Shown here: positions 19,101-33,953 of the stretch, in pieces
How the letters are laid out: each line of letters opens with the position of its first letter
Position numbering within the stretch: position 1 is the first letter of the stretch
Origin: an uncultured Gammaproteobacteria bacterium
Lineage (GTDB): Bacteria > Pseudomonadota > Gammaproteobacteria > UBA9214
NCBI GenBank assembly: GCA_963773065.1
Contig: CAVYZN010000033.1
Location: 1-64,000, forward strand
DNA length: 64,000 nt
Direction of reading: 5' to 3'
Made by a program: the position numbers and the translations under genes
The notes under the pieces: generated by a model
Seen by the model: the letters and a program-made list of their open reading frames with translations, nothing else
Database searches by the model: none
Told to the model about the DNA's origin: nothing

Positions 19101-20051
19101 ACCTGCAGCGCGCCTGGGCCGAGACCACCTTCCGGCTGCAGGCCCTGCGGGATAACTCCGAGTGCGCGCAGGAAGAATTCGACGCCCTGCTGGATGCAAC
19201 GGATCTGGGCATACAGTGCCGGACCACGTTCGATATCAACGAGGATGTCGCGGCGCCGTATATCACGCGGGGCGTGCGCCCGCGCGTCGCCATCCTGCGC
19301 GAGCAGGGGGTCAATGGCCAGATCGAAATGGCGGCGGCCTTTCATCGCGCCGGCTTCGATGCCGTGGATGTGCACATGAGCGAGCTGCTGTCGGGGCGCG
19401 TCACCCTGGACGATTTCACCGGGCCTGGCGGCCTGCGGCGGCTTCTCCTACGGCGACGTGCTGGGCGCCGGCCAGGGGTGGGCGAAATCCATTCTTTTTC
19501 ATGCGCAACTGCGTGACATGTTTGCCGCCTTTTTCGAGCGCGCGGACAGTTTTTCCCTGGGGGTGTGCAACGGCTGCCAGATGCTCTCCGGCCTCAGGGA
19601 ACTGATTCCCGGCGCCGGGGTGTGGCCGCGCTTCGTGCGCAACCGCTCGGAACAGTTCGAGGCGCGGTTCTCGCAGCTTGAAATTCTCGACTCGCCGTCG
19701 CTGTTTTTCGCGGGCATGGCGGGCTCGGTGCTGCCGATCGCCGTCGCCCATGGGGAGGGACGCGCGGACTTCGGCGGTCCCGCCGCGGCGCGGCGGGCGC
19801 TGGACAGCGGGCTGGTCGCGGCCCGCTACGTCGACGGTCATGGCCGGACGGCGGAGCGATACCCCGACAACCCCAATGGCTCGCCGCTGGGCATCACCGG
19901 CCTTACCACGGCGGATGGTCGCGTCACCATCATGATGCCGCACCCGGAACGGGTCTTCCGCAGCGTGCAGAACTCCTGGCACCCGGATGACTGGGACGAG
20001 GACGGTCCCTGGATGCGCCTGTTCCGCAACGCGCGGGTCTGGGTCGGGTAG
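16129..20051 (+). CDS. purL: Phosphoribosylformylglycinamidine synthase, large type (multiple frameshifts)
   Basis: Successive frames give [77 protein letters not shown] and MMPHPER. Confidence 0.95.
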
Positions 20052-20073
20052 CGACTTCCGCAATGACGGCGAT

Positions 20074-20186
20074 TTACTTCTGGAGGAACGGCAGGGGGAT
20101 TCAAGGACGACCATAGACACGACGGTCACGATGATGATGACGGCGATGGCGAGTGCGACGACCATGTGGCGTTCATATGAAAACAT
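20074..20186 (-). CDS. Small single-pass membrane protein (~37 aa, needs one indel in a C-run)
   Basis: GGGAG RBS 8 nt before ATG. MFSYERH is followed by a 20-residue hydrophobic stretch; adding one C gives ...LESPLPFLQK-stop. Confidence 0.5.
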
Positions 20187-20604
20187 GTTGCTTGCTCCCT
20201 AAACAGGTAACAGGATTGCGTATTTCCGGGAATAATAATCGCAATGACTGTCGCCAGCCATCATGGGCCGGCCGCCGGCCGGTCGATATTCGGCGACGCG
20301 CACCGGATGCGGGTTCCTGTACGCCGCGCTCACCGGGGCGCTGCTGCAGCAGACCTGGCCTATACGATAATTGCCGGGAAATCCGCCGCCGATGGCATCG
20401 TACTCTCCGGCATTTCGCTGTTGTAGATCGGTTTCCTGCCGGGGGGCCACCCGCCGATCAGTGGTCCATTTTTCGAGTCCATGAGAATCTGGATCATCGG
20501 TGTCGGGACGATTCTGCTCCTGACCGGACTGTTAGTTCTCGCCGTGAAGCGGCGCGGACGCCGCTGCGCCGGTATGTTCAGCCGGCCGGGACTGTCAGCG
20601 ACGC

Positions 20605-22139
20605 TTACTGTTTCGTGACCCAGGTTTCCGCCAGGCCCAGTTGCTGTCTTATCGCTTCCGCACGGACCGTGGCTGCCTTGCGGGTGTCGAAGCCGGCAAG
20701 GCGCACGCGGTAGATGGTTTTGCCGTTGACCGTGGCCGCGACCTGCTCGGCGGCGACCCCTTTCCTTCGAAGTCGGCCAGTTTCCTCGCCGCGATCGTCT
20801 CGCTCGCATAGGAGGCGAGGTTGATGACCCAATCGCCCGTGTTGGTTTGTGTCGGCTGGCTGTCATGCAGACTGTCCCGCGCGGGGTCTCTCGGCTTGTC
20901 TTGCGCTGCTGGCGCTTCTGCCTGTGCGATCGTGGTCTGTGACGCCGGTGCGCTAACGGCCACGGCGCCGGCCGCCATATCCGGGTACCCCACCGCCAGG
21001 GCTGCCACCGGTTCGAAAACCATGGGCTTATCCCGCGCGGCTTCCGATGGCGCGTCTTGCTCCGCTGCCGCGGCCATGCCGTCTGGCGACGTCGGCGGCG
21101 CGACCGCGGCAGCCGTCCAAGTGTCTGCGTCCGGTTCCGCCGCGCTGGCTGCCGCCGTTTCGGTGTTCCGTCGCCGGCGGCGGCAGGCAGCCATTGCGGC
21201 GTCCGCGGCGTCGACCGGTGCGGCCGTGGGCGGTTCGACCGGCATGGCGGCAGGCGGGTCGGCGCGCAGGGTCGCGTTCGCCTCGATAATGGCCGTGTGA
21301 TTATTGCGGACGAAGGATTCCATCTCGGCGGACAGATAGTCCAGGCGGGCGGCGGCATAGGTCAGCCGCTGCTCCAGATCCTGCAGTCGTTGCTTCGTAG
21401 GGGACCTGGATTTGCATCAACCGGTTTTCCAGCTCCCGCAGGCGCGCTTCATAGCCGGCAAAACCCTGTCCCAACCGGTTTTCCATATCCTGAAGTCGCC
21501 GCGTGCGTAGGGTGAGTACGCCTGCTCCAGGCGGTGCTCGACCGCCTGTAATCGCGCTTCCTGGTTGGGTGCATTGAATTGTTCCAGCCTGGCTTCGACA
21601 TCCCGCAAGCGCGTGACGTTGGGATCATCGGCCTGTTCCAGCCGGCGCTCCATGTTCCTCAGGCGCGCTTCGTACGGGTCAACGGTTTGCGCCAGTTTCG
21701 ATTCCAGGGAATGGAGTCTTTCACCGTAGAGATCATTAATTTCCGTCAATCTCTTTTCCAGATTCCCGAAGCGCGTCTCAGGGCGATACCTGGAGCAGGG
21801 CGGCGCGCCGGGTTCGGTGCGGGTGGTGGTCGCCACTTGCTGGGATACATTTGACAGATAGGCGCCCATGCCGCCGACGATCAGCATGCCCAGGGACATG
21901 ATCGCCAGTCCGGTCAATATGCGGTCACCCAGGTGGCAGGGCGCGTGATTGCCAGGTCTGGACGGGGTGAGTCGGCGGACCGCGGCCGGTTATTCCTTGG
22001 CCCATGGCGGCGGCAGGCCGGGTTTTGATGTTGATCTGTCGCCGCGTCCGGCCCGGGACCCGCGCCAAAGTCCGGCGGATCCTCCCTTGCGCATTTTTTG
22101 TGTGAAATCGTTCAGTTCCTTGTGATCTCGATGGGACAT
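20605..22139 (-). CDS. Membrane-anchored SPOR-domain protein with helical repeats (several frameshifts)
   Basis: N-terminal TM segment (GLAIMSLGMLIVGGMGAYL), repeat region, and Ala/Pro linker. C-terminal SPOR: WVINLASYASE...VNGKTIYRVRLAGF..R..A...LGLAETWV. Confidence 0.75.
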
Positions 22140-22420
22140 CAGTCCGATTCCCCTCCCGTTTCGATACTCGTTCAACGATTCCGGCAACTCCCCCAAGAGT
22201 ACTGCGCCCCTGCCACCGGGTGATTCACTCGCCGGCGCCGGCTGGCAAAGGCGGGCGCATTGTCGCACAGCGGAACAACCGGTATCCAGTCACTCGCAGG
22301 GAATTCTTCAGCACGGGCTGGAATCCTGGGTCACCCGGCGGTGAAGGCATCGGCAACGGGCGCGGGGCGTGCAGGCAGGGTTAATGGCTGGGATAACCGC
22401 CATCTCTGACGTAACCCAAC

Positions 22421-22510
22421 GTAGCCGTGGTTGGGCTGAACGAAGGCGAAGCTCAACAGTGCCACGTCTTTGTCCTCGCCGTTGGCTTCGCTGCGCTCAG
22501 ACCCACCTAC
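22421..22510. repeat. REP/REPIN-like inverted element
   Basis: The left copy GTAG..TGGTTGGGCTGAACGAAGGCGAAGCTCAAC and the inverted right copy (reverse complement GTAGGTGGGTCTGAGCGCAGCGAAGCCAAC) both start with GTAG followed by a short palindrome. Confidence 0.65.
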
Positions 22511-22569
22511 ACTAAGAGTCCCGCACAACCGGCTGGTGGATGGAAATGGGCGGCTCCCGCGCGTTCCGC

Positions 22570-24239
<1,670 letters not shown>

Positions 24240-24314
24240 GCGTCTTGCAATCCTGGTGCGGGTTGATGAAACGGACGGCCATTATAGGCGCCTCTCACCT
24301 GCCGGGCAAGCGGG

Positions 24315-24387
24315 AAAAAGGGGTCAGATCCCTTTTCTGCGTCTTTGATGCATTAAAGACGCTAGAAAAGGGTCCATCCTGCTCCCC
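24315..24387. repeat. Extragenic palindromic element (GGGGTCAGATCCC-type REP-like hairpin)
   Basis: AAAAGGGGTCAGATCCCTTTT overlapping a long hairpin CCCTTTTCT-GCGTCTTT-N8-AAAGACGC-T-AGAAAAGGG. Confidence 0.55.
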
Positions 24388-24408
24388 GGCATGCGTTAGA
24401 CTTGGCGC

Positions 24409-25357
24409 ATGTCGGCAGATACCTGTGTGTACATCGGCGATGAACTGGCCCGTTACGGCTTCGGCCAGGGTCATCCGTTCGGCCCGGATCGGCTGGGCGC
24501 GTTCTGGAAACAGGCGCAGGCCGCGGGACTGGCGGGACGGGTGGCGTGCTGCCCGCCGGTTTCCGCCGACCGGGCGAGCCTCGAGCGTTTCCACACCCCG
24601 GCATACGTCGACCGGGTCATCCGGCAGTCGAAAACCGGCGAGGGCTACCTCGACCTCGGGGATACGCCCGCGTTTCCGGGTATTTATGAGGCCGCCTGTT
24701 ATGTCGTCGGGAGTGTGCTCGATGCCGTCGCGCGCCTGCTGGCGGATAAGTGCCGGCATGCGTTCGTGCCGATCGCCGGCCTGCACCATGCGCGGCGCGA
24801 CAGCGCGGCGGGTTTCTGTGTGTTCAACGATTGCGGCGTCGCCATCGAGACGCTGCGCCGGGTGCACGGCCTGCAGCGCATCGCCTACGTGGATATCGAC
24901 GCCCACCATGGCGATGGCGTGTTCTATGCCTTCGAGAGCGACCCGGAGTCTGATTTTCGCCGATCTGCACGAGGACGGCCGTTACCTGTATCCCGGCACC
25001 GGGGCGGCCGGGGAGAGCGGTCGCGGTGATGCCGTCGGCACCAAGCTCAATATCCCCATGCCGCCGGCGTCCGGTGACGATGCCTTCCGTGCGGCATGGC
25101 AGCGGGTGGAGGCATTGCTCGACAAATTCCAGCCGGAATTCATCCTGTTCCAGTGCGGCGCCGACAGCATCGCCGGTGATCCCATTACCCATCTGGCCTA
25201 CACGCCCGCGGCGCACCGCCATGCCGCGGCCGGCTTGTGCCGGCTGGCCGAACAGCACTGCCGCGGTCGCCTGCTGGCGATGGGGGGCGGGGGGTACAAT
25301 CGCCACAACCTGGCGCTGGCGTGGACGGCGGTGCTGGAAGCGCTGATCGAGAATTGA
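24409..25357 (+). CDS. Histone deacetylase/AcuC-family Zn-dependent deacylase (frameshift near 24950)
   Basis: HPFGPDR, GDTPAF, GLHHA, GFCVFND, YVDIDAHHGDG, QCGADSIAGDP and GGGGY. Confidence 0.92.
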
Positions 25358-25441
25358 ACCACCCCCGGGAAGTGAGCGGTATTAGCACCTCTCTCAACAG
25401 TTTACGCTGAGGTATGATTCGTGCACAATCGCATACGGCCG

Positions 25442-26593
25442 ATGAGCAGCACCGACGATTCCCTACTTAAGGTTGATTTGATCGAGGTCCAGCAACTCTT
25501 GCTTGACCCTGATAATCCGCGCTTAGAGTCTGTCACAACGGGTTCTACTCAAGAAGAACTTGTCAAGGCTATGTGGAAGGAAATGGCGGTGAGCGAAGTC
25601 GCATTGTCCATCGCCGAAAACGGCTTCTTCCGCGAGGAGCCTCTTTTTGCAATCCCTGCGCCTAAGCATTTTGCGTCGAGCGAAAAACGGTTGGCCGGGG
25701 ACCAAAATAAACCTCGCTATATTGTTGTCGAAGGTAATCGGCGACTGACAGCCGTCAAACTGCTTGCGGACGACGAGTTAAGAACGCGCGTTCGTGCGAC
25801 TGACTTGCCGACGATCACGCCGACACGTCGGGAGAAACTGAATCGGCTCCCTGTATCCATCTATCCCGATAAGGAGTCGTTGTGGGAGTATTTCGGCTTC
25901 CGACATGTGAATGGACCCAAGGAATGGGACTCGTTGAGCAAGGCTGCTTACATTGCTCACGTGGTTCGCAATTTCGGGAAATCGCTAGACTTGATCGCAC
26001 GGAAGATCGGTGACCAACACAGCACTGTGGAGCGCATTTATAGGGGATATGTCCTATTGGAACAAGCCGAAGGCTCCACTGAATTCCATAGAGATGACCG
26101 TAAGCGGAATCGCTTTTACTTTTCTCACCTTTATACCGCAGCAAGCTACGCGGAAGTGCTTAAATTCTTGGGCACGGATGCAAGAAAAGCGCTACGTCCG
26201 AATCCCGTTCCACGCAAATACCTCCCTCATCTCGAAGAGTTGATGTCTTGGCTTTTCGGGAGCAAGGAACGAGAATTCGAAGCAGTTGTGCGCACCCAAA
26301 ATCCCGATCTTAACTACCTGCGCGCAGTAATCGGGAACTCCCAAGCATTGGCGGCACTTCGGTCGGGTGTTCGCTTGGAGCGGTCCTATGCCATTAGCTT
26401 GGGAGACATGCGTAGATTTGAAGAAGCTTTAGCGGCAGCCAAGGACGCACTCCAAGAGGCAAAGGGCACCGTCACTACAGGCTACAAGGGCAGCAGAGAA
26501 CTGTTGGAACAGATGGAGTCGATTATACTGCTAGCCGGTAGCATAGAAGTTGAGATGAGGAGTATTGCCGAGCGACCACGCGCAAAGTCCTGA
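25442..26593 (+). CDS. ParB/Srx-like N-terminal (CTPase-fold) domain protein with HTH
   Basis: LLLDPDNPRL, SIAENGF..EP and YIVVEGNRRL.A.K.L (ParB box I/II-like). An HTH-like segment SLDLIARKIGDQHSTVERI precedes a helical C-terminus. Confidence 0.8.
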   Translation: MSSTDDSLLKVDLIEVQQLLLDPDNPRLESVTTGSTQEELVKAMWKEMAVSEVALSIAENGFFREEPLFAIPAPKHFASSEKRLAGDQNKPRYIVVEGNRRLTAVKLLADDELRTRVRATDLPTITPTRREKLNRLPVSIYPDKESLWEYFGFRHVNGPKEWDSLSKAAYIAHVVRNFGKSLDLIARKIGDQHSTVERIYRGYVLLEQAEGSTEFHRDDRKRNRFYFSHLYTAASYAEVLKFLGTDARKALRPNPVPRKYLPHLEELMSWLFGSKEREFEAVVRTQNPDLNYLRAVIGNSQALAALRSGVRLERSYAISLGDMRRFEEALAAAKDALQEAKGTVTTGYKGSRELLEQMESIILLAGSIEVEMRSIAERPRAKS

Positions 26594-26600
26594 CGATCCC

Positions 26601-27491
26601 ATGCCAACCCCAGTCGTAATCCCGTTCCCCGAAAACTTCGACAGACCGGAAGCACTCGCCGACTGGTTGGAGCTTACTGCCCTTCACGCAGCTGACCAAG
26701 ATGCCAGTATCGGAGACGTTCAGCGCGAGTTGGACCGGTTGAATCAAGGTGGTCGAGAAAGCCTCCTAGGCAACATTCTTAGCGAATTTGATCGCCGTGT
26801 ACGGGCGACGGGATCAGCGGCATACCCGTTCGAGCGTGGTGCCACGTCTATTCAACTCAAGGGAAATCCGAGCGCCTATCCCGCTTACTTTTTTTGTCTC
26901 GCACTTTCGTATTACAAATGGAAGATTCGCAAAGGTGTCACAGATAATCCGTGGTTACTGTTCGAGGAGCTGGCTTTTTTTTCTGCTAAGAACTACGTAG
27001 GCGGTGAAGCTATTCTTTTTGGAACAAGCAGCCGCAAGGGGACGCGGGCCAAAAGCACTTTCAAAAAGAAAGTCGAATCTCTGATTAAGGCCCTTGGGGA
27101 AGGCCAATGCTTCACGTCAACACGAACCTTTTCATCTAAGGACAGCAAAGTTGACCTAGTTGCGTGGAAAGGTTTCAGAGACAGAAGGGCGAGTCAAATC
27201 ATCATCTTTGGTCAGTGCAAAGCCGGGGATGGTTGGCGCGATGAACTAACCGAACTCGATCCGGATGTCTTTTGGGATCAATGGATGACAGGAGGAAAGG
27301 GCAAGGTCAGCAAGCTTCTCCGTTCCGTGTTTATTCCGCATCGGGTTTTCGATGACGAAGAGTGGGATCTCCGAGCACGCTCGGCTCGACTGCTCTTCGA
27401 CCGCTGCCGAGTTGTTGCTCACGCTCACGAGGAAACCGCCACAGGTGACTTCGCCAATCGTCTCTTGGAGTGTTGTCGTTCCGAGTGGTGA
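26601..27491 (+). CDS. Putative PD-(D/E)xK endonuclease, Mrr-like QxK variant
   Basis: FEEL helix, then KDSKVDLVAWK and IIIFGQCKAG, matching the E...D...QxK layout of restriction-endonuclease-fold proteins. Starts 7 nt after the ParB-like gene stop. Confidence 0.65.
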   Translation: MPTPVVIPFPENFDRPEALADWLELTALHAADQDASIGDVQRELDRLNQGGRESLLGNILSEFDRRVRATGSAAYPFERGATSIQLKGNPSAYPAYFFCLALSYYKWKIRKGVTDNPWLLFEELAFFSAKNYVGGEAILFGTSSRKGTRAKSTFKKKVESLIKALGEGQCFTSTRTFSSKDSKVDLVAWKGFRDRRASQIIIFGQCKAGDGWRDELTELDPDVFWDQWMTGGKGKVSKLLRSVFIPHRVFDDEEWDLRARSARLLFDRCRVVAHAHEETATGDFANRLLECCRSEW

Positions 27492-28625
27492 TTACCTGTC
27501 GAAGCCATGAACGGACAAATCGACTGCATTCAATATGGCCCTACTTCGCGATGTTTCCCGAGACCTTCGACAAGCTCAAGTGGCTCGTTTCACGAAAGAG
27601 GGTGATTTTGTCTTTGATCCTTTTAGCGGGCGCGGGACCACCCTCTTCGAGTCCCTGCTGCGCGGCCGCAACGCCGCAGCAGTTGATATTAATCCTGTCG
27701 CCTTCTGCCTCACCAGGGCCAAAGCAGAAGTCCCAGAACTGCAACCGGTCAAGACCCGTTTGCAGAATCTGAAAAGGGCCTTCGGTGGAACAGACCAAGA
27801 GAGCCTAAACGAGGAAGCAGCAGCCCTGCCCTCTTTTTTCCGGCGAGCATTCTATTGCTCCACCTTGCGACAGTTGCTCTTCCTGCGTCGTAGACTCCGT
27901 TGGCGCGAAACTGCGGAGGACGCGTTCGTTGCTGCGCTCGTCTTGGGATCCTTGCATGGAGAAATGGATCGTTCACCTTCGTATTTCAGCAATCAGATGC
28001 CACGCACCATTTGTCTCAAGCCAGAATATTCCATGCGATACTGGAATTCGCACGGGTTGTATCCTAAAAAGCGCGATGTCTTTAGTATGCTCGCGTCAAA
28101 AGTGATATTCCGACTGGAAGGCGGGCGAACGGAATCGACTTGGCATCGAGAGGCATGCCGACGCTCGAAGATCAGTAGATGTTTTTCCTGACTTGTCTAA
28201 ACGTGTGCGCCTGGTCGTAACCTCGCCTCCTTATGTTGAAGGAAACGATTTGAGGAAGACCAATGGCTTTGCGTCTCTGGTTTCCGGCGGTGAGCCGAAT
28301 CCTACCTATGGTGTCGTTTCCAATGATGATCGTCATCGGGATCCAAGTCGTTATTGGCGTTTCTTGACTGACGTATGGATCGGCATCAAGCCGCTTTGCG
28401 AAACGACGCGGTATTGGTCATAAGGCTTGGGACAAAGTCGCTATCTCAGAGGCGATCACTGTCTCACTACTTAACAGCCTGCAGGAGGTATTTCCCGCTA
28501 ACTGCTGGCTCGAACAACCCGCCGTGTCGATAATTCGAGGTAAACAAGGACGAGCCTTCAATCCGAAGGCGGCTGGCTGCCAATACGAAATAGATTTTGC
28601 TTATGCACCGTTTCGCAATTCATAG
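27488..28625 (+). CDS. DNA amino-methyltransferase, alpha order, SPPY type (likely m4C); multiple frameshifts
   Basis: GTGA overlap with the upstream stop. LHSIWPYFAMFP, motif I VFDPFSGRGTT, AVDINP, then motif IV LVVTSPPY; reconstructed EEDQWLRLWF and C-terminal GCQYEIDFAY. Confidence 0.8.
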
Positions 28626-28949
28626 ATCGGTGCCCGGCGTCAGTTGACGATAACTAATAAAAACAAAAAGTGCATCACTCCCGCGGCTACGTGGCGGGAT
28701 GCGCGGGAGTTGATTTGGCAGCATCGACGGCATTGCGGATTTCGAATTTTGTCTCGCGATAGACGCAGTTCAAACCATCCGATTGACGATGTCATCCTCA
28801 AGCACCACAGCGAGCTGCGGGTCGAATGGTGCATTGTTACGTTTGACGCAATAGTTAGCAAAGCCCGGCTCGAATCGGCTATCATTTCCCGCTCGCCGGC
28901 TATTCCGGTACTTCCGCTGATTTCTGAAATTACCGCAGGATCGCCTGAC

Positions 28950-30208
28950 ATGTTTGACAAAGAGATGCGTATTGCCGGCTACGATGAGGAACTCTGGAAC
29001 GCCATGCAGGGCGAACGCCGGCGCCAGGAGGAACACATCGAGCTGATCGCCTCGGAAAACTACGCCAGCCCGCGCGTGCTGGAGGCGCAGGGTTCGGTGC
29101 TGACCAACAAATATGCCGAAGGCTATCCCGGCAAACGCTACTACGGCGGCTGCGAGTTCGTCGACGTGGCCGAGCAACTGGCCATCGACCGGGCCAAACA
29201 ATTGTTCGGCGCGGATTATGCCAACGTGCAGCCGCATTCCGGTTCCCAGGCCAATGCCGCGGTGTATCTGGCCCTGCTGCAGCCCGGCGATACCATCCTG
29301 GGCATGAGCCTGGCCGACGGCGGGCATCTGACCCACGGCGCCAAGGTCAATTTCTCCGGCAAACTCTTCCATGCGGTGCAGTACGGTCTGAACGCGCAAA
29401 CGGGCGTGATCGACTACGACCGGGTGGAGGCGCTGGCCCGCGAGCACCGCCCGAAGATGGTCGTGGCCGGTTTCTCGGCCTATTCGCTGCAGGGTCGACT
29501 GGCAGCGTTTCCGCGACATCGCCGATGCCGTCGGCGCCTGGTTGTTCGTCGACATGGCGCACGTAGCCGGCCTGGTCGCGGCCGGGATTTATCCCAACCC
29601 GGTGCCGATCGCCGATGTCACCACCTCCACGACCCACAAAACCCTGCGGGGGCCGCGCGGCGGGATCATCCTGGCCCGCGCCAACGCCGAGGTCGAGAAG
29701 AAGCTGAGCTCGATGGTCTTTCCCGGCACCCAGGGCGGGCCGTTGATGCACGTCATCGCCGCCAAGGCGGTGGCCTTCAAGGAGGCGATGGAGCCGGCCT
29801 TCCGGTGAATACCAGCAGCAGGTATTGCAAAACGCGCGGGCCATGGCCGAGGTGATGATGCAGCGCGGCTACAAGGTGGTTTCCGGCGGCACCGACGACC
29901 ACCTGTTCCTGGTCGATTTCATCGACAAGGGGATCACCGGCAAGGCGGCGGACGCGGCGCTGGGCGCGGCCAATATCACGGTGAACAAGAACGCCGTGCC
30001 GAACGACCCCCAGTCGCCGTTTGTCACCAGCGGCATCCGCATCGGCACGCCCGCCATCACCACGCGCGGCTTCCGGGAGGCGGAGGCGCGCGAACTGGCC
30101 GGCTGGATGTGCGATATCCTGGATGACATCACCAATCAGGGTATGATCGAAGCCGTGCGCGGGAAGGTGCTGGCCATCTGCAAGCGTTTCCCGGTCTATG
30201 GCGGCTGA
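28950..30208 (+). CDS. glyA: Serine hydroxymethyltransferase (frameshifts near 29490 and 29810)
   Basis: [43 protein letters not shown] and SGIRIGTPA. Confidence 0.97.
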
Positions 30209-30241
30209 CCCCGGCCCGGTACGCTGCGGAAATGCCTGACC

Positions 30242-30742
30242 ATGTACTGCCCGTTTTGCCGCGCCCAGGACACCAAGGTGATCGACTCACGGCTTGCCAG
30301 CGAGGGTTCCCAGGTACGCCGGCGGCGCGAGTGCCTGGCCTGCGGCGAACGCTTCACCACATTCGAGTCGGCGGAACTGGTCATGCCGCGCATCATCAAG
30401 AGCAATGGTGCGCGCGAACCCTTCGATGAGAAAAAGCTGGCGGCCGGCATGATGCGCTCGCTCGAGAAGCGCCCGGTCGATGCCGACAGCGTGGATGCCG
30501 CGATGAGCCGCATCCAGCACCGCCTGCGCGCCAGCGGCGAGCGGGAAGTGCCATCACGCCTGCTGGGCGAATGGGTCATGCATGAACTGCGGGCGCTCGA
30601 CCAGGTAGCCTATGTGCGTTTCGCCTCGGTGTATCGCAGCTTCGCGGACGTCAAGGCCTTCCAGGAGGAAATCGAGCGCCTGGAAAACGAACCCACGGCG
30701 GAAGAGAAGAAAGACCAGATATCGCTGCTCCCCGACGACTGA
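30242..30742 (+). CDS. nrdR: Transcriptional repressor NrdR
   Basis: MYCPFC...RRRRECLAC zinc ribbon, ATP cone, and [10 protein letters not shown]. Confidence 0.97.
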
Positions 30743-30834
30743 GCGCGGCGACATCGATGGGTCGATGATGAAACGATGAAACGCGTGGCCGGCGCCTGAT
30801 GACGCTGCCGCGCGCTCCGGTTTTGCCTGGCGAT

Positions 30835-31943
30835 ATGCACCCCACTTCTGATCACAAGCACATGGGACGCGCCCTGCAACTGGCCGGGCGCGGCCTCTAT
30901 ACCACCGACCCGAATCCGCGCGTGGGCTGCGTACTGGTCGAGGGGCGAGGAGGTGGTCGGCGAAGGGTGGCATGTGCGCGCCGGCGGCCCGCATGCGGAA
31001 ATCAACGCCCTGCGCGCGGCCGGCGACCGCGCGGTGGGCGCCACCGCCTACGTGACGCTGGAGCCCTGCTGCCATCACGGGCGCACGCCGCCCTGCACCG
31101 ATGCCCTGATCGCCGCCGGCGTACGGCGGGTGGTTGCCGCCATGGAGGATCCCAACCCGCGGGTTGGCGGCGCGGGGCTCAAGGCCCTGCAGGCCGCCGG
31201 CATCGAGGTGCGCTCGGGGGTGCTGGCGGCGGAGGCGCAACGGCTCAACCCGGGGTTTGTCATGCGCATGCGCGAGGGGCGCCCCTGGGTGCGCTGCAAG
31301 CTGGCGATGAGCCTGGACGGGCGCACGGCCATGGCGAGCGGCGAGAGCCGGTGGATCACCGGCGAGGCCGCGCGCCGGGACGCGCACCGCTGGCGCGCGC
31401 GCAGTTCCGCGGTCATGACCGGCGTCGGGACCGTGCTGGCCGATGACCCGTCATTGACGGTGCGTCTGGATCCGGATGAAGCCGGGCCATGGCGGCAGCC
31501 GCTGCGGGTCATACTGGATACGCATCTGCGCACCCCCCCCAAGGCGCGGCTGCTCGGCGTGCCGGGTGAAACGCTGATCCTGGCCGGGCGTCCGGACGGG
31601 GACAGGGAGGCGCGGCTGCAAGGCAACGGCGTCTCGATCATCACCCTGCCGATGGACGGCAGGCCGGCTGGATCTCGCCGCCGTGATGCGCTACCTCGGC
31701 CGGATGGAAATCAATGAAGTGCACCTCGAGGCCGGGGCGACGCTGTCCGGTGCGCTGCTGGCGGCGGGATGGGTCGATGAACTGGTTATCTACCTGGCGC
31801 CCCACCTGCTGGGTGACGCGGCCCGCGGTCTGTTCACCTTGCCGGGCCTGGAGCGCATGGACCAGCGTATAGGACTGTCCATCGTCGACATCCGCGCGGT
31901 GGGCCGAGACTGGCGCATTACCGCCACCGTGAACAAGAAATGA
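30835..31943 (+). CDS. ribD: Riboflavin biosynthesis deaminase/reductase RibD (frameshifts)
   Basis: PNPRVGCV, HAE, TLEPCCHHGRTPPC, KLAMSLDGRTA and LEAGATL. Confidence 0.95.
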
Positions 31944-31967
31944 TATCTTTGCCTCATGGGTGCAGAC

Positions 31968-32054
31968 GCCTCATGCCGGGTAAATCCTTCCGTGACGCGC
32001 TGTGAATACGTCCCTGTGACCGACAGTCACTGCAGGACTTACCCGGCATGAAGC
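31968..32054. repeat. Hairpin-forming extragenic repeat (MITE/REP-like) between ribD and ribE
   Basis: 21-nt arms GCCTCATGCCGGGTAAATCCT and AGGACTTACCCGGCATGAAGC (19/21 complementary) enclose GCGCTGTGAATACGTCCCTGT and a small GTGAC/GTCAC stem. Confidence 0.55.
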
Positions 32055-32103
32055 CTTAGTAGCATAGTTATTGATTACCGGTACAAATACCCTGACCAAG
32101 CGC

Positions 32104-32776
32104 ATGTTTACAGGAATCATTCAGGCGGTAGGGACGATCTCTACCCTTGAGAAGCAGGGCGGTGATCTGCGTCTCGGCATCCGCACCGGCAAATTGCCCC
32201 TGGGCGATGTCGCCATCGGCGACAGCATCGCCGTCTCGGGCGTCTGTCTCACGGTGGTCGAACTGGGCGAGGGCGGATTTCGCGCCGACGTCTCCGCGGG
32301 AGACCCTGCGGCGCACCACTCTGGGAACGCTTACCGTCAACACACCGGTCAACCTGGAGAAGGCGCTGACACTCTCCACCCCGCTGGGCGGGCACCTGGT
32401 GAGCGGCCATGTGGACGGCATCGGCACGGTGATCGCGCGGCGCGAGGATAACCGCTCGGTGCAGTTCACGATCCGGGCGCCGGATGAACTGGCCCGTTAT
32501 ATCGCGACCAAGGGTTCCATCTGCGTGGACGGCGTCAGTCTCACCGTCAATGGCGTGCAGGGCGCCGAGTTCGAGCTGAACATCGTGCCGCATACCCTGA
32601 CCGTGACCACCATGAACGGCTACCGCGCGGGGCGCCAGGTCAACCTGGAGGTCGATCTGATCGCGCGCTATCTGGAGCGGCTGTTGCTGGGGGAACGGGC
32701 GGCGCATTCCGGCGCCGGCGGCGGGATCAGCCGTGAAATCCTTGCGGCCAGCGGTTTCCTGGACGGGAAGCGCTGA
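32104..32776 (+). CDS. ribE: Riboflavin synthase alpha chain (frameshift near 32295)
   Basis: MFTGII N-terminus, GDSIAVSGVCLTV, GGHLVSGHVDG and KGSICVDGVSLT. Confidence 0.95.
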
Positions 32777-32843
32777 AGCACGGGCCCCGTTCGTGGATAA
32801 TAGGACCCCAACGTTGCAGCAACTGCAGGAACCGTTCGTTGTC

Positions 32844-33953
32844 ATGTCACTGAACCGTATTGAAGAGCTTATCGAGGATATCGCCGCCGGCCGCATGGTC
32901 GTCCTGATGGACGACGAAGACCGCGAGAACGAGGGCGACCTGGTCATGGCGGCGGCGCATGTGCGCCCGGAAGATATCAATTTCATGGCGAGCCACGGCC
33001 GCGGTCTGATCTGCCTGACGCTGACGCGCGAACGCTGTGAACAACTCGCCTTGCCGCTCATGGTGCGGCGCAACGTCTCGCAGCACTCCACGAATTTCAC
33101 GCTTTCCATCGAGGCGGCGCAAGGCGTTACGACGGGCATCTCGGCGCATGACCGCGCCCGCACGGTCCAGGCGGCCGTCAGCCCGAATGCCGCCCCCGGG
33201 GATATCGTGCAACCCGGGCATATCTTCCCCCTCATGGCGCAGCCCGGCGGCGTGCTGAGCCGCGCCGGCCATACCGAGGCCGGCTGCGACCTGGCGCGTC
33301 TGGCGGGGCTGGAACCGGCCGCCGTCATCGTCGAGATCCTCAACGAGGATGGCAGTATGGCGCGGCGCCCGGATCTGGAGATCTACGCCAAAAAACACGG
33401 CCTCAAGATCGGCACCATCGAGGACCTGATCCGCTACCGCATTGAAAACGAGAAGACGGTAGCGCGTGTCTCGGGGTGTGAGCTGGCGACGGAGCACGGT
33501 TTGTTCCATCTGCATGCCTACCATGACACGATTGACGGCGCCGTCCACCTGGCGCTGGTGATGGGGGATATCACCACCGATGAACCCACCCTGGTGCGCG
33601 TGCACATGCAGAATACCCTCAGTGACCTGGCCGATGCGCAACTGGAAGGGCATCACTGGTCGCTGCGCCAGGCGCTGCGACGCATCGCGCGGGAAGGCCG
33701 GGGCGTGGTGGTGATACTGCGCTGGGAAGAACAGGATGAACTGCTGCAGCAGATCCGGGAGTATCATATGCCCGCGGATGAGTCGGTGTCTGCGAAGAAA
33801 GTGGAGCCGGCGGAGTTGCGGACCTATGGCGTCGGGGCGCAGATCATCGCCGATCTGGGGGTGCGCAAGATGCGCGTTCTGAGCGCGCCCAAGATCGTGC
33901 ACGGTATCGCCGGTTTCGGGCTGGAAGTGGTTGAATACGTTCCTTGTGAATGA
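32844..33953 (+). CDS. ribB: 3,4-dihydroxy-2-butanone-4-phosphate synthase fused to a degenerate GTP cyclohydrolase II domain (RibBX-like)
   Basis: [19 protein letters not shown] and RAGHTEA. The C-terminal domain reads [12 protein letters not shown] and lacks the zinc-binding cysteines. Confidence 0.9.

Follow-up and report, generated by a model that had tools for sequence, protein, structure and literature searches.

Here we describe a three-gene cassette in a 64,000-nt stretch of DNA (the window; positions 1 to 64,000 of contig CAVYZN010000033.1, assembly GCA_963773065.1) from an uncultured gammaproteobacterium of the lineage UBA9214. The cassette encodes a predicted ParB-fold protein (gene 1), a predicted nuclease of the restriction-endonuclease fold (gene 2) and a DNA methyltransferase (gene 3), and is an unannotated three-gene relative of the phage defence system PD-lambda-5. 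We consider it probable that this island is a self-contained, mobile, restriction-modification (R-M)-like defence cassette composed of three proteins. A first-pass annotation, made from the sequence letters, had put forward the trio as a candidate undescribed defence system, a claim that proved only partly right: it was too strong in that gene 1 is homologous to PD-Lambda-5_A over ~210 residues, and it stands for the nuclease and the three-gene layout, which are in no library searched.

Conservation of gene order ties the three genes together across a wide range of bacteria. Relatives of gene 2 numbered 173 in one-genome-per-species contigs, and the best 80 loci, which span 15 named phyla, were examined. 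In 76 of the 80, gene 2 was immediately preceded by a gene 1 homologue on its own strand, and the four misses were at contig edges (L023, L034 and L078) or split by an insertion sequence (L047). A DNA methyltransferase was adjacent in 74 loci, either of PF01555 type, directly downstream on the same strand (n = 34), or of the D12 (Dam-like) type (n = 40), the latter placed upstream of gene 1 (n = 19), downstream on the same strand (n = 14) or downstream and convergent (n = 7), with three of the 40 more than 1 kb away; six loci had no recognised methylase. Chance falls far short of explaining how regularly the three genes occur together as a unit.

The methylase is kept but has been repeatedly replaced. 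In a phylogeny built from the joined protein sequences of genes 1 and 2 (69 rows, leaving out the partial or interrupted matches L002, L003, L011, L013, L017, L023, L034, L039, L047, L061, L070 and L078), methylase class required 6 changes, compared with a mean of ~23 when labels were shuffled, and none of 500 shuffles came down to the observed value when each methylase class was considered by itself. The window and its closest locus, L001, both carrying PF01555-type enzymes, were nested within a D12 clade (SH-aLRT, the Shimodaira-Hasegawa-like approximate likelihood ratio test, 99). The PF01555-type methylases of these loci share 46-64% mutual identity through their variable middle region, values that would fit a target common to them.

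Gene 1 is a ParB-fold protein on the evidence of its structural model. The AlphaFold model (alignment of 29 sequences; predicted local distance difference test score, pLDDT, 88.0) suggests an N-terminal ParB/Srx nucleoside triphosphatase (NTPase)-type domain, a helix-turn-helix (HTH) domain and a C-terminal helical region, agreeing with the full ParB-like layout first read from the sequence. Foldseek matched this model, over 230-300 alignment columns and with probability 1.00, to KorB (2.5e-6), Myxococcus xanthus ParB (3.4e-6), Caulobacter ParB, Noc and Spo0J, the top match being KorB in its co-complex with KorA. In VIA-align, the top seven of 48,161 chains were all ParB/Srx folds (Z 5.6-7.8), namely pNOB8 ParB-N (Z 7.8, 199 residues aligned, root-mean-square deviation (rmsd) 4.8), PadC (7.0), KorB (7.0), Spo0J (6.9), sulfiredoxin (6.5), serine kinase (6.4) and SbnI (5.6), and the HTH part by itself found the DNA-binding domains of ParB and KorB at Z 4.2-4.3. 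Weaker matches were to SspE, BrxU and DndB-type chains (Z 2.9-4.0; BrxU in Foldseek E 0.034).

The motifs DxxNPR, EGNRR and RHxNG..W are invariant in 29/29 aligned family members, the individual invariant residues being D22, N25-P26-R27, E97-G98-N99-R100-R101, H155, N157, G158 and W162, together with the HTH segment IGDxxxTVxR. EGNRR is of the phosphate-binding GxxR (box II) type and aligns to GERRWR in the canonical ParB of the same genome and to GERRLR in 4umk. An hhalign comparison of gene 1 with that canonical ParB was weak (probability 16%) but collinear, placing EGNRR on GERRWR, RHVNG on ENIQRE and HTH on HTH, so the replacement of the usual EN..R motif by RHVNG..W, noted from the letters, holds up. 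Sequence libraries gave partial signals: a sub-threshold match to TIGR00180, a marginal ParB match in the PDB sequence search (4umk, E 0.025), four distant matches in the plasmid collection, and PADLOC matches to PD-Lambda-5_A models (best 8.2e-16, covering only profile positions 4-153 of 428) and to PDC-M38A (6.2e-15, profile positions 87-336 of 715). A precomputed PF02195 (ParB_N) match was present in 10 of 120 homologues among the matches listed. The absence of an adjacent ParA was also correctly called, the neighbours being an acuC-like gene and glyA. The genome has a canonical ParA (278 aa)-ParB (310 aa) operon on another contig (C31; L099:475-2271), whose ParB was the sole match of a whole-genome PF02195 search; gene 1 thus represents an additional ParB-fold gene, and a divergent one. 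The start of gene 1 at GTG has a GAGG 9 nt upstream.

Gene 2 has a restriction-endonuclease fold, as judged from its predicted structure (22 sequences, pLDDT 87.6), in which a winged helix (~residues 11-105) would precede a nuclease domain (~93-290). The best VIA-align matches were MspJI (Z 7.0, 148 residues aligned, rmsd 4.2), AF1548 (6.6), AspBHI (6.3) and SdaI (6.2), followed in rank by N.BspD6I, PaqCI, BsaWI, BsmI and FokI. All of the top 10 rows were of PD-(D/E)xK type, nine of them restriction or nicking enzymes or AF1548 and the other Card1, with Z 5.3-7.0, which is middling by the tool's note. Foldseek found FokI at 1.5e-4, and the N-terminal part resembled the winged helices of BrxR (Z 5.3) and F-112 (Z 5.2) in VIA-align. 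With restriction-enzyme folds at the top of both searches, the PD-(D/E)xK assignment of the first-pass annotation is supported. No match was found for gene 2 in Pfam, PADLOC, NCBIfam, the PDB sequence search or the plasmid collection, and the Protein Atlas placed it within 'hypothetical protein' clusters, with HaeII (0.82) and BsobI (0.80) as leads only. The family is large: a profile searched against 1.84 billion cluster representatives (50% identity) returned 2,685 matches at E<=1e-3, 1,839 at <=1e-10 and 456 at <=1e-30, and the relatives among the matches listed are stand-alone proteins, nearly all of ~230-380 aa, with few shorter fragments.

The putative active site of gene 2, assigned by sequence position and secondary structure only, comprises E122, D185 and Q205-C-K207. 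Among 140 representatives of 270-360 aa, kept from 151 cluster representatives, E122 was present in 137/140, D181 and D185 each in 140/140, Q205 in 117/140 and C206 in 139/140. Of the E...D...QCK signature originally reported, the acidic residues E122 and D185 are therefore conserved, and the lysine of QCK is not typical: K207 occurred in 4/140 and K215, which takes its place, in 136/140, never both and never neither, with a split of 5 (207) versus 17 (215) in the 22-sequence alignment. Since the two positions are mutually exclusive, a lysine appears to be required at the site, the pattern expected of an essential catalytic lysine.

As an observation in its own right, the TGA stop of gene 2 lies four codons before the end of its homologues (..EW[K/S]LP[V/L/I]); codons for L-P-V follow it (27486-27509), with GAA where the homologues have a stop after LPV. 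Either a recent nonsense mutation or an erroneous base would account for this early stop.

Gene 3 is a PF01555-family methyltransferase in which motif I (DPFSGRGTT) stands ahead of motif IV (TSPPY), the nuclease gene being immediately upstream. The SPPY motif presumably indicates N4-methylcytosine as the product. The fragment 27535-28189 scored 29.7 bits against Pfam N6_N4_Mtase (cut-off 26.7), compared with 52.3 bits for the intact homologue in L001, and PADLOC recognised gene 3 with its MTase_II model PDLC03325 (1.5e-15). Although first drawn as one open frame, gene 3 is cut in this assembly by seven 1-nt frameshifts, near 27569, 28132, 28241, 28270, 28284, 28394 and 28447. Frameshift-aware alignment with the intact 370-aa homologue (L001:6901-8013) gave 237/372 identical columns, zero in-frame stops and intact motifs I and IV, which, with the Pfam match, upholds the motif order as first described.

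These frameshifts are probably assembly errors, and the methylase probably intact in nature, because short-read contigs undo both of the sites that they cover and similar indels occur in the flanking core genes. Contigs from soil-metagenome run X1 insert a single base after 27571 and lack one at 28131, removing the first two frameshifts; the other five are uncovered and the depth is 2-3. Two further contigs of the same run, which span 26457-26607 and 26703-26853, match the window letter for letter. Relative to a same-genus genome (G001), ettA has three 1-nt indels in 1,725 aligned bases, the acuC-like gene one and glyA two, and the assembly (33 contigs, 3.84 Mb, 91% complete) contains random 1-nt errors at a rate of roughly 1-2 per kb, so that a frameshift in a gene of the window is not to be taken as the mark of a pseudogene. 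The idea that gene 3 is a decayed pseudogene was largely rejected on the same grounds, namely the lack of in-frame stops, the intact motifs, the core-gene indels and the short-read corrections. The start of gene 3 may be the GTG at 27488, which would give the GTGA overlap with gene 2 first proposed; this is only one option, the other being ATG 27507 together with one further 1-nt error, which would mirror the start of the intact L001 homologue.

Separately, we observed that the frameshifts are clustered, with seven in the 1.1 kb of gene 3, whereas the 2.07 kb occupied by genes 1 and 2 is free of them; no common sequence context was seen when the frameshift sites in gene 3 were compared. Comparison with same-genus genomes shows that single-base indels interrupt each of the core genes ettA (22570-24239), acuC-like, glyA and ribD (30799-31943).

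The relationship to PD-lambda-5 is seen in gene 1 and in a D12 methylase of the sister loci. Vassallo et al. 2022 (PMC9519451), in the portion of that report available to us, describe PD-lambda-5 as a system isolated by functional selection in E. coli for phage protection, protective against 9/10 phages and needing an mrr-deleted host, which the authors term a compacted RM+Abi (restriction-modification plus abortive infection) system and in which T-even phages are hit harder than lambda-vir and T7. A true PD-lambda-5 pair is present in Marinobacter phage AS1 (A 1.4e-42, B 4.1e-103), where the A protein, AS1_27, matches its profile over positions 4-381 of 473. The gene 1 family aligned with AS1_27 in hhalign with a probability of 99.2% (E 1.6e-19), over residues 11-215 only; the gene 2 family gave no alignment with this A protein. 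Over its first ~210 residues the A protein (~430-590 positions) is homologous to gene 1, with a ParB-type domain, an HTH and the motifs LDPDNPRL, VVEGNRR and RHxN, and its C-terminal part is unlike either gene 2 or the tail of gene 1. PD-lambda-5 also shares with the 40 D12 sister loci a D12 methylase of the PD-Lambda-5_B kind, judged from the only one tested (L005; 1.4e-39 over the full profile), and is prophage-borne.

Unlike the two-gene PD-lambda-5, the window has a separate nuclease gene and a PF01555-type methylase, and it lacks an A match over most of the protein length and a D12/PD-Lambda-5_B methylase. On these sequence comparisons we class the system of the window as a relative of PD-lambda-5 and not a member, given its three genes, its different methylase class and a nuclease family that is in no library searched. 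The three-gene layout with a separate nuclease gene was likewise in none of those libraries. Our literature search found no mechanistic study of PD-lambda-5, no description of this three-gene system (hotspot cassette tables in supplements may list it) and nothing on PDC-M38.

The cassette is a horizontally acquired, mobile unit. Its guanine-cytosine (GC) content is 0.49-0.55 over 25250-28999, compared with 0.62-0.70 in both flanks (500-nt windows). When the window from 20001 to 33000 was aligned to the orthologous regions of two same-genus genomes, position 25393 abutted 28854 in G001 and 25369 abutted 28854 in G002, and since the flanks are contiguous in both, the low-GC block 25394-28853 is a true insertion. 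An island-free allele was also found as a 451-nt soil-metagenome contig (run X1) that joins 25385 to 28854 with 24 other letters between, showing that the cassette is polymorphic among related strains in at least one sample. Horizontal acquisition, first suggested from A/T-rich codon usage, is thus confirmed by the GC contrast and by the site being empty in relatives and in the metagenome contig, and the ORF coordinates likewise agree with the three co-directional genes originally described (Table 1). The island has no integrase and no transposase, and no direct or inverted repeats of at least 7 nt were found at its ends. A promoter and terminator scan of the island gave no signal exceeding shuffled expectation. 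The 3' tail contains an 8-bp inverted repeat, CTCCCGCG...CGCGGGAG, read directly from the sequence; the terminator scan returned nothing there. The sequencing-run search gave only one soil-metagenome run, with a small share (0.11) of words, and runs X2 and X3 held short, unlike pieces only; no habitat inference is drawn.

Table 1. Coordinates of the cassette, its genes and its flanks within the window (+, forward strand;., no strand)
Feature	Position	Strand	Remarks
Inserted island	25394..28853	.	3,460 bp; GC ~0.51-0.55; flanks joined in G001 and G002
Gene 1, predicted ParB/KorB fold	25421..26593 (GTG start) or 25442 (ATG)	+	390 aa or 383 aa
Gene 2, predicted winged helix and PD-(D/E)xK nuclease	26601..27491	+	296 aa; 7-nt gap after gene 1
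Gene 3, PF01555-family (N4C/N6A) DNA methyltransferase	27488..28625	+	TAG at 28623-28625; start uncertain
Island 3' non-coding tail	28626..28853	.	Part of the insertion when compared with G001 and G002
Left flank, acuC-like deacetylase gene	24409..25357	+	Core genome; one 1-nt indel at 24949 vs G001
Right flank, glyA	28950..30208	+	Core genome; 1-nt indels at 29492 and 29806 vs G001

Relatives of the cassette also occur on phages and plasmids. In coliphage Wphi, gp98 (ParB-like), gp96 and Mth lie between gene A and the genome end, and the P2-like Pseudomonas phage vB_PaeM-D14A has an equivalent trio; the part of PMC6823313 at hand identifies the region between gene A and the genome end as the tin/old (TO) immunity region of P2-like phages. 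The phage ParB-like protein has 30% identity to gene 1 over 82% (E 3e-31, tblastn), the middle proteins of the two phages are gene 2 homologues (hhalign 97.3% and 97.6%) and the methylase is annotated as a cytosine-C5 enzyme. Like the window, these phage cassettes have the same gene order and the same sizes, with the methylase after the gene 2 homologue; they differ in that the methylase is C5-annotated and convergent and that the proteins are only distantly related. Our literature searches found no test of either phage cassette, and neither ParB nor methyltransferase is mentioned in the main text of Rousset et al. 2022. Distant pairs of genes 1 and 2 with no annotated methylase were present on a Persicobacter plasmid and a Neorhizobium plasmid, the latter pair (L082, 1-8830) within a defence island with Dcm, DUF262, Z1 and PD-(D/E)xK genes. 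Among 300 genomes of the window's class, a gene-1-like match (to the N-terminal half of the PDC-M38A profile) was found in three, the window's own genome counted, and in one of these (G152) a gene 2 homologue adjoins. The next gene downstream in the Neorhizobium locus gave a weak HNH_5 match (E 6e-4, below the cut-off).

We propose that the methyltransferase would mark and protect host DNA and that the gene 2 product would act as the DNA-cleaving effector, cutting unmodified DNA. The gene 1 product would be an obligatory third subunit that binds DNA through its HTH and contacts the nuclease, and its nucleoside triphosphate (NTP) switch, using cytidine triphosphate (CTP) or another NTP, would gate cleavage. 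It might load on unmodified DNA, close or spread as a clamp, and recruit or license the nuclease, an action that may be analogous in function to the NTP-triggered sliding of Type III enzymes, and the whole system would defend against phages. The R-M-like reading is well supported, and the clamp mechanism is an attractive one that we infer for gene 1. The stronger version, in which gene 1 is a true nucleotide-gated clamp that loads at unmethylated targets, slides, and delivers or activates the nuclease, and which would also explain PD-lambda-5, is tentative and on balance doubtful. A prediction of the complex between genes 1 and 2 scored 0.00, and as it was made without controls it weighs neither for nor against binding.

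Several observations weigh against this proposal. Box III of ParB, ENxxR, has a role in CTP hydrolysis, and its replacement by RHVNG in gene 1 means that NTP hydrolysis, and even binding, may differ. The fold Z scores of 7.0-7.8 are in the middling range by the tool's own yardstick, gene 1 has no Pfam match at E<=0.1, the ParB_N model (PF02195) not reaching it, and Q205 of gene 2 occupies a position where most PD-(D/E)xK enzymes carry an acidic residue. Intact pairs at L050, L051 and L079 and the plasmid pairs L081 and L082 have no recognised methylase nearby, which would not be expected if the restriction nuclease were active. Conservation is high both in the gene 1 HTH and in the gene 2 winged helix, although the class of methylase changed at least six times, a combination that can be reconciled only if every methylase has the same target or recognition comes from the methylase itself. 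A search among longer relatives of gene 1 (672-2000 aa) turned up no fused form, ParB-nuclease fusions included, a result that is weak evidence. Finally, all functional roles given to the family are predicted.

Other explanations share part of this evidence. Genes 2 and 3 could be an ordinary Type II R-M pair, with gene 1 as a large ParB/KorB-like equivalent of a controller (C) protein that times nuclease expression after transfer. KorB, the best Foldseek match, is a ParB-family transcriptional repressor, gene 1 is the first gene of the operon, and its HTH is strongly conserved whatever the methylase class, as that of an operator-binding regulator could be. We judge this unlikely, as the 383-aa protein carries an invariant NTPase-type motif set and neither a promoter-like site nor a repeat was found upstream of it. 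To our knowledge, C proteins are far smaller than 383 aa. In PD-lambda-5, moreover, a two-gene system that works, the sole protein besides the methylase has a gene-1-like domain fused to it, suggesting that the ParB-type domain belongs there to the effector and does more than regulate. An abortive infection system, in which the ParB-fold protein senses an infection cue (nucleotide pools, or phage DNA or protein) and unleashes the nuclease on all DNA, with the methylase secondary or an antidote, has a rather small chance of being correct. It would suit the pairs without an adjacent methylase, the description of PD-lambda-5 as RM+Abi with stronger action on T-even phages than on lambda-vir or T7 (PMC9519451, in part), and the binding of CTP, ATP or GTP by ParB folds according to family (PMC12704722, in part). 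The methylase, though, is adjacent in 74/80 loci and was replaced rather than lost at least six times, which argues that methylation is essential to carriage, and no sensor domain besides the ParB fold was seen in the sequences.

The bare 3.46-kb unit in a housekeeping intergenic site, the co-occurring strain without it and the relatives on prophages and plasmids would also be consistent with a selfish addiction or maintenance module, in which a stable nuclease kills cells after segregational loss of the methylase and the ParB-like protein contributes to DNA maintenance. The island has no ParA partner or replicon. In R-M systems addiction and defence are not exclusive, and the homologous PD-lambda-5 was selected directly for phage protection (PMC9519451, in part), making this account quite improbable. 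Genes 1 and 2 might alternatively be the ParB-like NTPase and the nuclease of a Type IV enzyme like GmrSD/SspE, split in two and directed at foreign DNA that carries modifications, with the methylase an unrelated neighbour, a reading to which the weaker matches of gene 1 to SspE, BrxU and DndB-type chains would lend themselves. We give it hardly any credence: an unrelated neighbour would not be expected at 74/80 loci in two classes, with a third class in phages, the nuclease is predicted to be PD-(D/E)xK and not HNH/DUF1524, and PADLOC found no GmrSD, BrxU or SspE match.

Comparison with known systems places the R-M-like cassette among, yet apart from, several groups. The CTP-dependent clamps ParB, KorB and Noc share with gene 1 the NTPase domain, HTH and C-terminal helical part, and are its best structural matches; gene 1 differs in having no ParA partner, no ENxxR box and no Pfam ParB_N score, and in its linkage to a nuclease and a methylase. 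Type III R-M systems have a helicase-like ATPase Res subunit bound to Mod, and NTP-triggered sliding licenses cleavage of unmethylated DNA; they serve as a working analogy only, and neither gene 1 nor gene 2 showed homology to them. Type II systems likewise place a methyltransferase with motifs I and IV beside a nuclease gene, but have two components without an NTPase subunit, to which the window adds a third gene that is kept in 76/80 loci. In GmrSD/BrxU and SspE, the DNA nuclease that acts in defence is under the control of a ParB/Srx-fold NTPase domain of DUF262 type (PMC12839542; mBio 2026 SspE paper; both in part). Those enzymes, unlike the window's system, are single polypeptides with an HNH-type nuclease, no cognate methylase and modified or phosphorothioate (PT)-marked DNA targets, and the structural match of gene 1 to this group is weak (Z 3.1-4.0). 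DpdB and DndB are described as ParB-fold NTPase accessories of DNA-modification and restriction systems (PMC12839542, in part), with different modification chemistry and partners, and the match to the DndB complex is weak (Z 2.9). The PADLOC candidate PDC-M38A matches gene 1 in its N-terminal half; the suggestion that it is a ParB-nuclease fusion was rejected, because its C-terminal half matches the AAA_15/AAA_21 ATPase families. A 2025 survey of the ParB-CTPase fold (PMC12704722, in part) records fusions to methylases, HNH and other domains, CTP, ATP or GTP binding in different families, and numerous orphan proteins of the ParB fold that mobile elements carry and that have no known role; its abstract and section 7 do not describe this operon.

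CTP switches of the ParB type have been described in the segregation of chromosomes and plasmids, in nucleoid occlusion and in gene silencing by KorB. The cassette ties a ParB-fold subfamily by gene order (76/80 loci) to a restriction-type nuclease with a swappable methylase, and by homology to PD-lambda-5, a validated defence system. Testing would show if an NTP-gated clamp can police DNA methylation status, and a function would follow for a nuclease family of 2,685 clusters without a Pfam, NCBIfam or PADLOC model. If the clamp reading is true, the cassette would represent a distinct mechanistic type of R-M, with a clamp switched by CTP or another NTP in place of a helicase motor, and would define a large unannotated nuclease family in at least 15 phyla and in P2-like phages. 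The annotation of defence systems would gain as well: at such loci, PADLOC v2 models would pick up no more than a partial A match and a generic methylase.

Individual loci depart from the common arrangement in minor ways. L051, which has no recognised methylase nearby, is a close sister of L065, which has one. Gene 1 is truncated by an insertion-sequence transposase in L011 (4431-5279) and split by one in L047 (4103-5560), and both look like decaying copies; downstream in L047 is a DUF1156-type anti-phage methylase-like gene. In L006 (7312-12505), the trio is followed by a 729-aa open reading frame and then one of 994 aa, the first of which has an N-terminal sequence that we take to resemble a Type III-style Mod methylase.

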